This document shows, piece by piece, positions 12,540-17,647 of a stretch of DNA of 64,000 nucleotides; positions within the stretch are counted from its first letter, which is position 1; each line of letters starts with the position of its first letter. Made by a program: the position numbers and the translations under genes. Below the pieces are notes generated by a model. It was not told where the DNA came from. It searched no databases and was given only the letters and a program-made list of their open reading frames with translations. Source of the stretch: a virus; IMG/VR virus record IMGVR_UViG_3300036826_000567, positions 34,898-98,897 of that record; one strand, 5' to 3'.

Positions 12540-13986
12540 AGGCCCCTGGGAGCCAAATCTAGCCACCCTCTTAGCGTGGTATGAGTCATTTTTTCAGAGA
12601 AAGTGTCCCCTGGGGCATCCTGGGCAGCGAGAGGGGCACTTCTACGCCGCCTGTCTAACCCCACCATGAGGCAAGATTCCGCAAGCCCAAAGATTGAAAT
12701 ATTTGAGATGGGACACACTATTCTATATACATATTGCCACTTAGCATTTAAAGATGGTAAATATAACAATATTTTTATATACTCTCTCTATGAGACGAAT
12801 GTTCAGATATAAGCTTTACCGTAGTAAGCATAATGGCAGACTCCATCGCCTAATTAATATAGGCGGAGCAATTCATAATCATGTCATTGCATTGCATAAG
12901 CGCTACTATAGGCTATATAAGAAGCATCTCTCTCACTATAAGCTTAAAGCTCATCTTGCAAAACTAAAGCGTCTGCCGAAATATGCCTGGTGGAAACAAC
13001 TGCGCGCTCAAGTCATTCAGAACATTGTTGACCGGATTGACAAAGGCTATGAGCGTTTCTTTCAGAGCCTGCGCGATCGCAAAGCCGGAAAGGCCACGCA
13101 GCGAGTGGGATCCCCCACATTTCGGAAGATTGCCAAGGCTAAATCGTTCACCATGACGCAAGATGGCTGGAAGCTTCTTGGTGCCAATCGCATACAAATC
13201 CATGGCACTGTCTACAAGTTTGCCAAGTCTCGCGATATAGAAGGCACTATCAAAACGGTTACTGTCAAACGTGATGCCCTCGGAGAGTTGTATATCTACT
13301 TCTCTTGCCTTCTTGATGCACAGCCTATTGACAGAACTATGACGGGTCAAAGCGCAGGTTTTGACTTTGGGCTGACTACCTACCTCACAGGGAATGATGG
13401 CACCGAGATTCAGGCTCCCCAACCGTTCAAGCGTAGACTGAAGCAGATTGCCCAAGCCAACCGCCGCCTCTCGCGCAAAGCGAAGAACTCTCACAATCGC
13501 AAGAAAGCTCAGCAGCACCTGGCCCGTGTCCACCGTCGCGTGGTCCATGTGCGTGAAGCATTCCACTGGCATCTTGCCCGCGACCTCTGTCAGCGCTATG
13601 ACCATATAGCCTTGGAGACACTGAATCTGCGGAGTATGCAAGCCTTGTGGGGTCGCAAGATCTCGGATCTGGGTTTTGCGGGGTTTGTGTGTATCCTGCA
13701 TCATGTCGCCTCGAAGCTAGGAAGCGTCGTTCACCATATTGATCTCTGGTTCCCCTCGACCAAGCTTTGTTCTATCTGCGGCGTACTCAATGAGCATATC
13801 ACCCTTAGAGACCGCGCCTGGACCTGCGATGCCTGTGGTACAACCCACCGCAGAGACCAGAACGCGGCCACGAATATTTACCGGGAAGGGGCATCTTCCC
13901 GTGGAGAAGAGTGCATCAGACTGCCAATGGCAGCTGCGCTTGTTGATCCCAGAATCTCCCGGCTTTAGCCGTGGGGAGTATGTCAA
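12540..13986 (+). mobile_element. IS1341-like (tnpB-only) element; left end approximate
   Basis: Right-end hairpin GAATCTCCCGGCTTTAGCCGTGGGGAG followed by TATG-TCAA (TCAA at 13983-13986); no tnpA. Confidence 0.75.
12790..13968 (+). CDS. tnpB: IS200/IS605-family RNA-guided endonuclease TnpB
   Basis: RuvC-I GFDFG, RuvC-II IALETL, zinc finger CSICG..CDACG, RuvC-III RDQNAA; lower GC than flanks. Confidence 0.95.
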   Translation: MRRMFRYKLYRSKHNGRLHRLINIGGAIHNHVIALHKRYYRLYKKHLSHYKLKAHLAKLKRLPKYAWWKQLRAQVIQNIVDRIDKGYERFFQSLRDRKAGKATQRVGSPTFRKIAKAKSFTMTQDGWKLLGANRIQIHGTVYKFAKSRDIEGTIKTVTVKRDALGELYIYFSCLLDAQPIDRTMTGQSAGFDFGLTTYLTGNDGTEIQAPQPFKRRLKQIAQANRRLSRKAKNSHNRKKAQQHLARVHRRVVHVREAFHWHLARDLCQRYDHIALETLNLRSMQALWGRKISDLGFAGFVCILHHVASKLGSVVHHIDLWFPSTKLCSICGVLNEHITLRDRAWTCDACGTTHRRDQNAATNIYREGASSRGEECIRLPMAAALVDPRISRL

Positions 13987-15128
13987 CTCCCGTTCCCATG
14001 CCCCAGGTCGAGGGTGGCCTGGCGCGCATCGGCGTCCCGCTCCCGCTCGGCGTCCTCCTCAGCCTGCATGAGGTCGGGCTGCGTCGTATCCTCACCCGGG
14101 TGGATGCCTGGGCTGCCGGCCTCTGGCCGTTTCGTCGCGGCCTTTTGCTGAAGCTTTTCTAGGAGCATCGTCAGGGTGAAGACCGTGCGTCCCCCATATT
14201 TCTGATCCATGCGCCCCCACCAATCCTTACGCTGCTCCGGGTCCATCCCCTGTGCCGCCAGGAGTGTGTCAATCTGTGCGACCAGCGCCGCGGCGCCGGG
14301 CTCTTGTTCGCCATAGAGGACGTTGATGGTCTCGGTAAGCGCGTGCGGCTGTGTCGGCGTTGGCGGCGCAGCCAGCAAGACCTGTTGCGCACCCGCAAGG
14401 ATCTGCCGTGGCGTGTACTTCGGCCACAACACTGGCACGGCAAACTTCAGTGTGCCTTTGCCTTCCCCTTTCCCAGGCCGCTTGACCATGCGCTGTTCGA
14501 GACGGAGCACGGCTTCGATAATCGTGTGCGCCTGCCCAGCCATCTGGAGCATTTCGAGCGTGCCTATGACCTCGGACGTCGCATAAAAGGCATCGTGGCA
14601 TTCGAGGCGCCAAGTCCCCATCCCTGGGAGATCAGGGAGTAAGACGTTGAGCCGCAGCACCCGTGCACACGCTTTTCCTGACTTGGCCATAGATGCCCGT
14701 TCGCGGTCATTCTGAGGGCACCTGCAGGCGGTGCCCTCTAATGCCGGTTCGAGCGGACACTCGCGAATGGTTGCCCCATCACACCTCCGCTGACACCCTG
14801 AGCCGCTCCATTGCTCAAAGGATATGGAGGCCGCACTCATCGTAGGAATCAGCACATCCATGCTATTGACGGTGGTATAGAGCTCGAATTGCTGAGGACG
14901 CCCATGCTCATCTCTCGGCGCCCCCTCACTCTCCCAGGGATGCACCTCGCCGCCATAGGCCAACGCCGCGTAGTGGAGCAGTGAGCCATTGCTCGACGTT
15001 AAGCGAAACGTGTCTAATTTATGGGGATGGGTCCCTTTGCCATTGCTATTCGCCTCGCGATTTCCTATGCGAATCCTGCCGAGTTCCGTAAGTTTTTTCG
15101 GTAAGGTTCTGACCATTGCTGTCGCCAT
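13983..15128 (-). CDS. Phage Gp3/recombination-directionality-factor-like protein
   Basis: LGRIRIG..PHKLDTFRLTS..YGGEV.PW..WSGSGCQRRCDG..LNVLLPDLPGMGTWRL. Confidence 0.7.
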   Translation of the reverse strand: MATAMVRTLPKKLTELGRIRIGNREANSNGKGTHPHKLDTFRLTSSNGSLLHYAALAYGGEVHPWESEGAPRDEHGRPQQFELYTTVNSMDVLIPTMSAASISFEQWSGSGCQRRCDGATIRECPLEPALEGTACRCPQNDRERASMAKSGKACARVLRLNVLLPDLPGMGTWRLECHDAFYATSEVIGTLEMLQMAGQAHTIIEAVLRLEQRMVKRPGKGEGKGTLKFAVPVLWPKYTPRQILAGAQQVLLAAPPTPTQPHALTETINVLYGEQEPGAAALVAQIDTLLAAQGMDPEQRKDWWGRMDQKYGGRTVFTLTMLLEKLQQKAATKRPEAGSPGIHPGEDTTQPDLMQAEEDAERERDADARQATLDLGHGNGS

Positions 15129-15187
15129 TGTCTTGGGCCTTTCTTTTGTGTTACGCTAGGAGTGCATCTCGTCTCCTAGTAGGGTTG

Positions 15188-15553
15188 TTACTCCTGGGCT
15201 GTGGTTGCCCCCACGCCCGGGAGTCCTCCTTCACGCGCCATCCCGCCACAGTGATGGACGGCATGACCACGCGATTCATACAAGCACGGCCGCTCTGCCC
15301 GTGCGTTCCACCCGATGACATACATCGGGATCTCCAGGTCCACCGCCAGCCGTCTCCCATCGGCGGTGTCTCCCATGAGCACCAGCTGCCCACACGCCTC
15401 ACAGGGCACGTAGCAGGGGGCTGGCTCCTTCTTGTGTTTCTTTGTCGGGACGTCCGCTGTGGGCGCCAGGCCGCTACTCACCTCGCGGGGCGCACGGCTG
15501 CGCTCCGGACTGTCGGTATCAATCTGGTCGGGCTCCAGCATAAACTCAGGCAT
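15188..15553 (-). CDS. Hypothetical protein with CxxC
   Basis: AGGAGGAG RBS; PCEACG. Confidence 0.5.
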   Translation of the reverse strand: MPEFMLEPDQIDTDSPERSRAPREVSSGLAPTADVPTKKHKKEPAPCYVPCEACGQLVLMGDTADGRRLAVDLEIPMYVIGWNARAERPCLYESRGHAVHHCGGMAREGGLPGVGATTAQE

Positions 15554-16106
15554 GGCTCGGCTCCTCCTGCCTTGGCATGCGCACGAGGTCACACGTCCAC
15601 CGCAGCGACCAGTCTCCACTCGCTCGTGGGATACTCGCCATGATCCGCGGTGCGATTTCCTCATCCCACCACGTCAGGGGGACCCACGCTCCACGTTGGT
15701 CCGACTCCGGACCCTGGTCCCACTCCCTTCGCACATTCACGTCATAGACCATGCGGCCATACTCCACCGTCTCGGCGACTGCAACCCAATGCGTGTAGCG
15801 ATACGCCGCCCTCCCCGGCCCTCCCGGCTCGATCCAGGGGCCATGCCACTGTATGACGGCCAGGCCATAGGTCGGCCACTGGCTCCCGCGCTTGATGGCC
15901 GTGTGGCCCGCTAAGCGGATCGCGGTCCACATCGTGGAGGGCGTTACCCACGGTTTGCGGTCAAACTCGGGAAACACCCGGCGTACCCTCCGCACGAGGA
16001 CGCCGAGGATGGCCGCCAGGGCGCACGGCCCACAATTGGCGCCGAAATTTTTATGAGCTTCTTCAACATCAGAAGGTGCATAAAGGTCCTCATATTTAAA
16101 CATCAT
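15546..16106 (-). CDS. Hypothetical protein, possible C39/papain-like fold; AT-rich recoded N-terminus
   Basis: NCGPCALAAIL and THWVAV..VYDVN give a Cys-His-Asp arrangement; the first 24 codons are AT-rich. Confidence 0.55.
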   Translation of the reverse strand: MMFKYEDLYAPSDVEEAHKNFGANCGPCALAAILGVLVRRVRRVFPEFDRKPWVTPSTMWTAIRLAGHTAIKRGSQWPTYGLAVIQWHGPWIEPGGPGRAAYRYTHWVAVAETVEYGRMVYDVNVRREWDQGPESDQRGAWVPLTWWDEEIAPRIMASIPRASGDWSLRWTCDLVRMPRQEEPSHA

Positions 16107-16696
16107 GCGACCTCCGGAAAATTGAGTACAGCGAACTCGCCATGATATATTCTCGCAGCCGTATCGTAGGCTTGTGCGGCATCTTCTTCTGCATAAAAGC
16201 GCCCCAAATGTATTATGCGATGATTAATCTGTACACTTGCCCGCCATTTCCCAGTCTGTTTGTCCCAAGCAACTCCTTTGAACGTCGATTTGCCCACAAT
16301 TACACGCCGATTACAATTATTTCCACTGGCTGTTGTTATGCGAAGATTCTGGCGTCTATTGTCCAACCCATTGCCATTTCTATGGTCCGTACGCATACCA
16401 GCAGGCGACTCCATAATGAGGCGATGCATATAGATTTGGGTTTTCTTCCGTCTAAATTTTTTTGTCCGTGCCGCATATCCAGCACTGTGGTAATGCCACT
16501 TCCACTGTGAGAGCCATTCATGGTCAATAGCATCCACTGTGGCGTAATACCCTTTGGTGAGCGGAATGAAGGCAAATAAGGTAGACTCTGGCATACTCAT
16601 AGACACATGCACCTCCAATGCGTGTGATATGGGGAGAGCCCCTTCGAGTGTTTCCAGCACTTGTGGGGCTCGTTTTTTAGTTTTAAAGAATAGCAT
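16103..16696 (-). CDS. HNH-AP2 homing endonuclease
   Basis: YMHRLIM..TDHRNGNGLDNRRQNLR (HNH_3) plus FKGVAW..KWRA..HLGRF..AAQAYD.AA..HGEFA.LNF (AP2); low GC. Confidence 0.93.
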   Translation of the reverse strand: MLFFKTKKRAPQVLETLEGALPISHALEVHVSMSMPESTLFAFIPLTKGYYATVDAIDHEWLSQWKWHYHSAGYAARTKKFRRKKTQIYMHRLIMESPAGMRTDHRNGNGLDNRRQNLRITTASGNNCNRRVIVGKSTFKGVAWDKQTGKWRASVQINHRIIHLGRFYAEEDAAQAYDTAARIYHGEFAVLNFPEVA

Positions 16697-16727
16697 ATAC
16701 TGCTCTAATGTGCACTATAAATAGTTC

Positions 16728-16838
16728 TCAATTCGCGCCCCACGCCCGGTACGCGACCTCCACATCCTCAGGGGCATAGAGGTCATCGTAGGCCATGAGG
16801 CGTTGCTGGGGAACAGTCGTGTCGTCAGTAGTCATCAT
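16728..16838 (-). pseudogene. Orphaned original N-terminus of the 15546-16106 gene
   Basis: Translates MMTTDDTTVPQQRLMAYDDLYAPEDVEVAYRAWGAN*, matching MMFKYEDLYAPSDVEEAHKNFGANC of the downstream gene. Confidence 0.8.
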
Positions 16839-17647
16839 CCTCGTCCTTCTCTGCACGCTCTCGCTCGGCTTCCTGCGGCTCATAGCGGGCAGTCGCATAG
16901 GGATCGGTGTACGGGCAATACTGCTCCGCGGCTACATGCGCCATGCGCTCCTCGCCACAGTGCTGACAGGGAGTAGTCCGGTGCGAGGGTGCGTCGCTCC
17001 TGTCTCTCGGCTCCATCACGCCTCCTCTTCCCAATTGGCATGCAAATGTTCCCAGGTCATGAGGAGATGGCGGACCAACTCAAAATCAGGTGTCTTGTCT
17101 TCGCACATCTGTTGAAACACGTCGGGCCCTTGCGTCCAATCAATGGGCAACGCCAATAACCGCTGCTGCAAGGCTCGCGCCTGCACGTAGCGGTAATAGG
17201 TCGGCGCTACGATCAACCCAGACTGGTGTGTGACGCCATAGACAATTCCCATGGCGCTGTTATGCTTCTGGATCCAGAGGCCACCCTCTAGGTCACTGCC
17301 CCAGGCTACCGACTCGTGGCATTCGCCACAGGGGCATGGTACTCTCTCGTCCTCGGGACGCTGCTGAATTGGGAAACGAATCATTCTTCCTCCTTTCCTG
17401 GCCCTCGCCGGCTCGCTATCGGGTCCGTATAGGGCAGACTTCGATGCTGCATGCCCTCCTCACTCTCAGGGATAATTACCACGGTAAACCCCTCGCCGTC
17501 GTTCACGAAAAAGGGGCCAGCGGTCATGAGGACGGTGTCCTCGACTATCGCCATCAGCGCCTCCCGCAAGCGCCGCAGGTCGTCCAGCGTCCCAACAATC
17601 ATGGCATCGTCATGCCACGCCTCTTGCGCATAGATATGCAGGGTCAT
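16825..17647 (-). other. Three small hypothetical CDSs (16825-17016, 17016-17384, 17381-17647)
   Basis: Overlapping stop/start codons, each with a GGAGG-type RBS. Confidence 0.5.

Follow-up and report, generated by a model that had tools for sequence, protein, structure and literature searches.

The view has been that homing endonuclease genes spare the host gene only if they reside in an intron or an intein or occupy an intergenic site. The mobile endonuclease reading frames (mORFs) of fungal mitochondria carry a foreign C-terminal end of the gene in which they reside and leave the native end behind as a remnant; cases are atp6 of Allomyces macrogynus, atp9 of Rhizopus, cox2 of Mortierella and atp6, atp9, cox2 and nad3 of Glomus (PMC3630166). 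Here we describe a locus on a viral contig from soil in which an HNH-AP2 endonuclease gene lies within the coding sequence of a phage gene, together with a second copy of the beginning of that gene. The locus resembles the mORFs in that an intronless endonuclease open reading frame (ORF) lies inside a coding gene, in that a diverged duplicate of the displaced end keeps this gene whole, and in that the native remnant resembles close relatives more than the replacement does. mORFs belong to mitochondria, encode LAGLIDADG or GIY-YIG enzymes and provide a C-terminal end that is usually joined to the host gene in phase, whereas the phage cassette provides an N-terminal end with start codon and ribosome-binding site, encodes an HNH and AP2 enzyme, and restarts the target by coupling to the endonuclease stop. 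The phage cassette works like the mORF elements but is not a member of them.

Among phages, splicing-free residence of an HNH gene in coding sequence is likewise found in the hidden HNH genes of the ShiLan type in actinophage methylase genes, although there translation continues in frame across the insert, which forms a loop, the HNH gene is out of frame, and nothing is duplicated or replaced (PMC11855218). The likeness to intronless homing by the Seg and Mob enzymes of T4 concerns the free-standing HNH-type gene, the conserved target gene, the donor sequence transferred along from the flanks and the immunity that the donor owes to its differing sequence (PMC2988022). Seg and Mob genes are located between genes and are not accompanied by a duplicated gene fragment, whereas the phage cassette is located inside coding sequence and duplicates the 5' end. 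The free-standing HNH gene mobE reportedly splits nrdA of Aeromonas phage Aeh1 ('genes-in-pieces'), both fragments being needed and assembling as a split protein. As with mobE, a free-standing HNH gene resides here in a conserved phage coding region without intron or intein; unlike nrdA, the target has one fragment made redundant by the replacement copy. Synthetic 'home-and-rescue' drives, which are based on CRISPR and belong to insects, place a nuclease cassette in a needed gene and add a recoded, cleavage-resistant piece that restores its function. Unlike these, the phage cassette is natural and protein-guided. We found no phage precedent and no N-terminal precedent for an endonuclease cassette that replaces a gene end, in a literature search whose coverage was incomplete and which is no proof of absence.

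Anatomy and setting of the insert

The window, i.e. the whole stretch of 64,000 nucleotides analysed, is part of a 98.9-kb viral contig (IMG/VR; 88% complete by CheckV), and the sequencing runs that hold it are soil metagenomes. Every gene around the cassette lies on the minus strand. The neighbourhood contains a DNA methylase, a Gp3-like protein, a primase-helicase and several small ORFs without known function. The Gp3-like, 'recombination directionality factor-like' protein (PF18897, E 9e-30; 13983-15128, minus strand) is encoded two genes downstream of the target. A second mobile element, a TnpB gene of the IS605 type (OrfB_IS605 with a Cas12f1-like TNB domain; 12754-13968, plus strand), lies 1.6 kb away from the cassette on the other strand and has a GC content of ~50% in a 60% GC window.

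The mobile cassette (16033..16728, minus strand, as are all features of the locus given below) is 696 bp long, low in GC, and composed of a leader, the endonuclease gene and a replacement 5' end. It is positioned exactly between the Asn24 and Cys25 codons of a GC-rich phage gene, with 40-48% GC in the cassette versus ~60-66% in the flanks, and is present as a single copy in the 98.9-kb contig. On its upstream side lies a stub of 36 codons and a TGA (16728..16838). The stub ORF starts with ATGATG at 16838 and ends in ..AYRAWGAN, the AAT codon being located at 16733-16731 and the TGA at 16730-16728. It has a GC content of 65% and a third-position GC content (GC3) of 0.79, as has the gene body. 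On composition and similarity, the stub is the native 5' end of the target gene, the gene body is native, and the insert is compositionally foreign. The assignment of the stub follows from its being closer than the replacement to the nearest relatives of the target (14 versus 10 identities to P0002, 14 versus 11 to P0005 and 12 versus 9 to P0008). A 69-codon ORF upstream (16825-17034) ends in a TGA (16827-16825) which overlaps the ATGATG of the stub; translation of the native target gene was therefore coupled to that of this upstream neighbour as well. From the stub, a peptide of 36 amino acids may continue to be translated. Searching short proteins for further stubs returned only the window's own 35-amino-acid call.

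The two junctions share a short repeat. At the left junction this is GGCGCGAATTG (16729..16739), where the Cys codon TGT has been turned into the stop codon TGA; at the right junction it is GGCGCCAATTG (16033..16043), followed by the native Cys25 codon TGT (16034-16032). GGCGCGAATTG and GGCGCCAATTG are spaced by exactly 696 bp, and excision of 696 bp in silico yields ..GCG AAT TGT GGG CCG.., that is ..WGAN-CGPCAL.. in translation.

The replacement 5' end (16035..16106) consists of 24 foreign codons which restart the target gene, so that the new protein would begin with MMFKYE... Its ATG overlaps the stop codon of the endonuclease gene as ATGA, and a GGAGG stands 4 nt upstream of the new start. 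The replacement codons have a GC content of 36% and a GC3 of 0.29, compared to a GC3 of 0.79 in the rest of the target gene and 0.44-0.45 in the endonuclease gene. At the junction, it takes at most ~2 codons for the third-position pattern to reverse. Homology between stub and replacement extends over the last 23 codons of the stub. Alignment of the two N-terminal copies gave a local score of 74 against a null 99th percentile of 51; in an ORF-aware test the null maximum was 43, and the best mismatched locus pairs scored 43-66, according to which test was used. In the 23 aligned codons, six are identical, seven differ synonymously only and ten differ in the residue. The family-invariant residues L8, P11, D13 and A23 are retained in the replacement.

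An earlier sequence-only reading of this DNA had proposed a GC-rich stub ending in a stop codon upstream of the HNH-AP2 gene (16728-16838), an AT-rich gene start which switches to GC-rich sequence at CGPC, and coupling of this start to the endonuclease gene by an ATGA overlap. It had further taken the sequence between the shared repeats for a 696-bp insert whose removal restores a single GC-rich gene. The measurements given above bear out all of these points, and the limits it drew for the insert are equivalent to ours within the 5-nt ambiguity of AATTG.

The arrangement is not an assembly chimera, because one Logan contig runs through the stretch and another contig, assembled from a second sample, connects both sides of the right junction. 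The former, of 46,964 nt, covers the whole stretch and comes from run X1, which is the probable source run and hence represents the same reads; the latter, of 162 nt, covers 15986-16147 and comes from a different soil sample (X3). A third sample contains pieces of the endonuclease gene and of the region upstream. An insert-free variant was not seen in the three soil runs, of which X2 and X3 yield short pieces only.

The target gene, its relatives and the endonuclease

The target gene (16106-15546; native body 15546..16034) encodes a protein of 186 amino acids without match in Pfam, PHROG or PDB sequences. A word-indexed search gave 13 close relatives, and an exhaustive profile search gave 971 representatives at 50% clustering. 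Cys25, His106 and Asp122 are conserved in at least 90% of sequences. In the AlphaFold model (pLDDT 91) a helix comprising residues 25-34 begins at Cys25. Foldseek matched the model to the C39 peptidase domains of ComA and PCAT1, to staphopains and to Josephins; VIA-align gave Z scores of 8-9.6 over nearly the whole model, all 50 listed rows being papain-like. We regard the target as a papain/C39-like putative cysteine peptidase with Cys25, His106 and Asp122, family membership being assigned by fold alone. Since the predicted papain/C39-like fold puts Cys25 at the N-terminus of a helix, the insertion falls at the codon of the predicted nucleophile of this putative peptidase, in agreement with the earlier suggestion that the putative catalytic Cys codon had been hit. 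Papain-like proteins of this family, uncharacterised so far, are abundant in environmental phages.

Empty alleles are abundant, as had been asked of relatives in the sequence-only reading. In viral and metagenome collections, approximately 70 of 76 related loci read uninterrupted through ..WG(A/C)N-CGP.., the most conserved stretch of the target family, and the remaining regex calls are mis-hits. No HNH-AP2 gene lies within 6 kb at any of the 76 loci. The gene is also uninterrupted in L004, the closest relative (69% identical), and for the best 150 of the 971 family representatives the alignment always begins ahead of the Cys. Among 50,697 cultured phage records the target gene has no homologue, and a single-protein scan with the target gene of the window gave no match.

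The HNH_3 and AP2 free-standing homing endonuclease gene extends over 16103..16696 in its longest ORF (197 amino acids); the true start is likely the ATG at 16600, which follows a GGAGG. The HNH_3 match (E 1.5e-6, 28.2 bits) is above the Pfam cut-off of 24.8, while the AP2 match (E 1.5e-6, 28.8 bits) is below the cut-off of 33.3 and is backed by plant AP2/ERF chains in the PDB, with E values from 1.3e-12 (7wq5) upwards. Residues D104, H105, N113, N117, N126 and N129, which are invariant across 30 homologues, are all present in the enzyme of the window. The protein also matches phrog_99 (E 1.5e-36). Its family is very common, with 992 protein-search matches, at least 563 IMG/VR loci and 1,385 cultured phage records. 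A GCC-box-like GGCGGC occurs 17 nt downstream of the junction; it was given no weight, such motifs being common in GC-rich DNA.

The closest relative of the endonuclease, P0015, is 62% identical, and the likeness extends just upstream of the likely start; a segment of the leader read as LPISHA.EVHVSMS is common to both. For P0015 and the target homologue P0004 alike, the longest contig listed measures 22,071 bp. The N-terminal segment of P0004 (..ENFGAN) has more in common with the replacement than with the stub. P0015 and P0004 probably represent a second occupied allele at the same site.

The same layout at other loci

We surveyed 85 loci with related endonucleases for duplicated flanks by comparing the translated upstream and downstream flanks of each locus, with mismatched pairs as the null. 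The layout of stub, endonuclease gene and replacement is genuine at three loci, namely the window, L080 and L106. It is thus a minority outcome, with a frequency of 3 in 95 loci with related enzymes when ten sampled cultured phages are included, all of which were ordinary intergenic cases.

At L080 the interrupted gene encodes a DUF6765 protein. Its stub counts 25 codons (..VAKAAGYSDDDA); the endonuclease gene comes next, and behind it an AAGGAG precedes the restart (..IAKAAGYSDEDA..). At L106 the target is an AAA_24 ATPase. The first 14 codons of this target form the beginning of the endonuclease ORF, to which they are fused in frame, and the target restarts at an ATG overlapping the endonuclease stop, with the junction located ~7 codons before the Walker A motif. 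Through this fusion (2450-2986 of L106), the endonuclease borrows the start signals of the interrupted gene, an arrangement that resembles intron ORFs fused to upstream exons. Codons which differ synonymously only make up 8 of the 12 before the junction at L080, 5 of 13 at L106, where one more differs in residue, and 7 of 23 in the window. Composition does not tell at L080 and L106 which copy is native.

The three enzymes are scattered on the family tree, with pairwise distances of 2.4-3.4 versus a random mean of 3.1, and the layout therefore arose repeatedly. Scans with the target genes of L106 and L080 matched only these genes themselves and gave no empty alleles. A C-terminal variant of the layout was not present among 77 loci. 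Six high-scoring survey loci were rejected as low-complexity, off-frame artefacts. L084 was also rejected as a further case, being a tandem endonuclease pair: its two HNH-AP2 genes (2076-2983) align at their C-terminal ends (KYFGEF..NFIE.).

Possible origin of the cassette and its meaning

We consider it probable that the unit that moves is a composite cassette, made up of the leader, the free-standing HNH-AP2 homing endonuclease gene and a diverged version of the first codons of its target along with their ribosome-binding region. That the architecture is found again in two unrelated genes, with distantly related enzymes of one family, strengthens this view. The source would be an AT-richer donor phage in which a homologue of the target closely followed the endonuclease gene; no donor genome for the cassette was found in this analysis. 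The enzyme would cut endonuclease-free alleles at or near the conserved ..GAN-CGP.. codons. The downstream broken end would then invade the donor gene, and repair synthesis would copy the 5' end of this gene along with the endonuclease gene, while the other end would be joined illegitimately in a one-sided repair. Free-standing endonucleases of T4 cleave DNA some way from where their own genes are inserted and promote co-conversion, and illegitimate junctions at microhomology, resulting from one-sided homology, are documented for T4 intron homing (PMC2988022). Once formed, the cassette could home normally, with the gene body as right arm and the stub, likely, as left homology arm.

Divergence of the replacement copy would serve such an element in three ways: the occupied allele would be uncuttable, recombination between the two copies could not delete the cassette, and a broken end could not pair with the replacement, by which repair without copying of the endonuclease gene would be avoided. 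We infer cleavage resistance of the recoded copy, as well as the absence of splicing at the RNA level. Mostly synonymous differences are also expected from plain descent from a distant homologue under purifying selection, and are therefore no proof of selection for recoding.

Whether natural phage HNH-AP2 'home-and-rescue' cassettes, with a synonymously recoded 5' segment of the target, constitute a distinct and recurrent class of mobile elements is a matter on which we lean slightly to the sceptical side, and we propose it only tentatively. If this reading is true, the active-site codons of needed genes can be occupied without RNA or protein splicing, and recoding would combine self-immunity, a block on deletion by repeat recombination and forced copying of the endonuclease gene. 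Irrespective of this reading, the window, L080 and L106 show another phage solution to the problem of sparing the host gene, which is to bring a replacement gene start. The mitochondrial principle of the foreign C-terminus is extended to phages and to N-termini, and engineered gene drives with recoded rescue have a natural counterpart. For annotation, such cassettes explain short orphan ORFs and abrupt composition switches at the starts of phage genes. The locus also yields testable predictions on how sequence divergence steers break repair, and it flags the papain-like soil-phage family with its 971 representatives as one whose catalytic motif may be a homing target.

The exactness of the junctions bears on a different origin, in which the AT-rich block arrived by illegitimate phage recombination unrelated to cleavage at this site and the endonuclease is cargo with its real target elsewhere. 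Insertion is codon-exact at both junctions, with no target sequence lost or gained, and has hit the part of the family sequence where conservation is highest; three loci show this geometry beside catalytic motifs (at L106 ~7 codons before Walker A), which would be rare for random breakpoints. Such passive mosaicism is therefore unlikely in our view, even though phage genomes are mosaic with nuclease genes often at exchange boundaries (PMC10448857) and the presence of the layout in just 3 of the 95 related loci would suit it.

It is considerably less probable still that the target gene is dead, with a replacement 5' end that is untranslated or a protein that is inactive, and that the arrangement is a decaying scar. 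The ten residue changes in 23 codons could matter, but the frame of 186 codons is intact, all N-terminal invariant residues are kept, and residues 1-30 of the chimeric protein are predicted with a pLDDT of 89-95. The coupled start with its GGAGG is present, and the rescue layout is also found at the two other loci.

Reading the insert as a self-splicing intron or as an intein, in which the endonuclease gene would be nested and for which stub and body would be exons of one product, is hardly tenable, since, although an active-site codon is a typical insertion site for both, the non-coding part of the insert amounts to ~130 nt at most and leaves no room for a ribozyme, no Rfam match was obtained inside the insert (cmscan, E up to 1, 15000-17600), the TGA closing the stub at the junction precludes an in-frame intein, and a complete alternative start with its own Shine-Dalgarno sequence and conserved N-terminal residues would be superfluous for an intron. 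Splicing had been disfavoured before, and at the sequence level this view stands. An RNase P-like Rfam match lies outside the insert and is attributed to chance.

The leader of the cassette (16601..16728, ~130 nt) has an unremarkable overall fold (z -1.35) and contains local hairpins. A strong hairpin spans 16636-16671, and a second one (16598-16631) encloses the GGAGG Shine-Dalgarno sequence of the endonuclease gene. The latter may delay translation of the endonuclease; delayed translation is known for T4 endonucleases. Read on the plus strand, the first hairpin is followed by TTTTTT and looks like a terminator for antisense transcripts.
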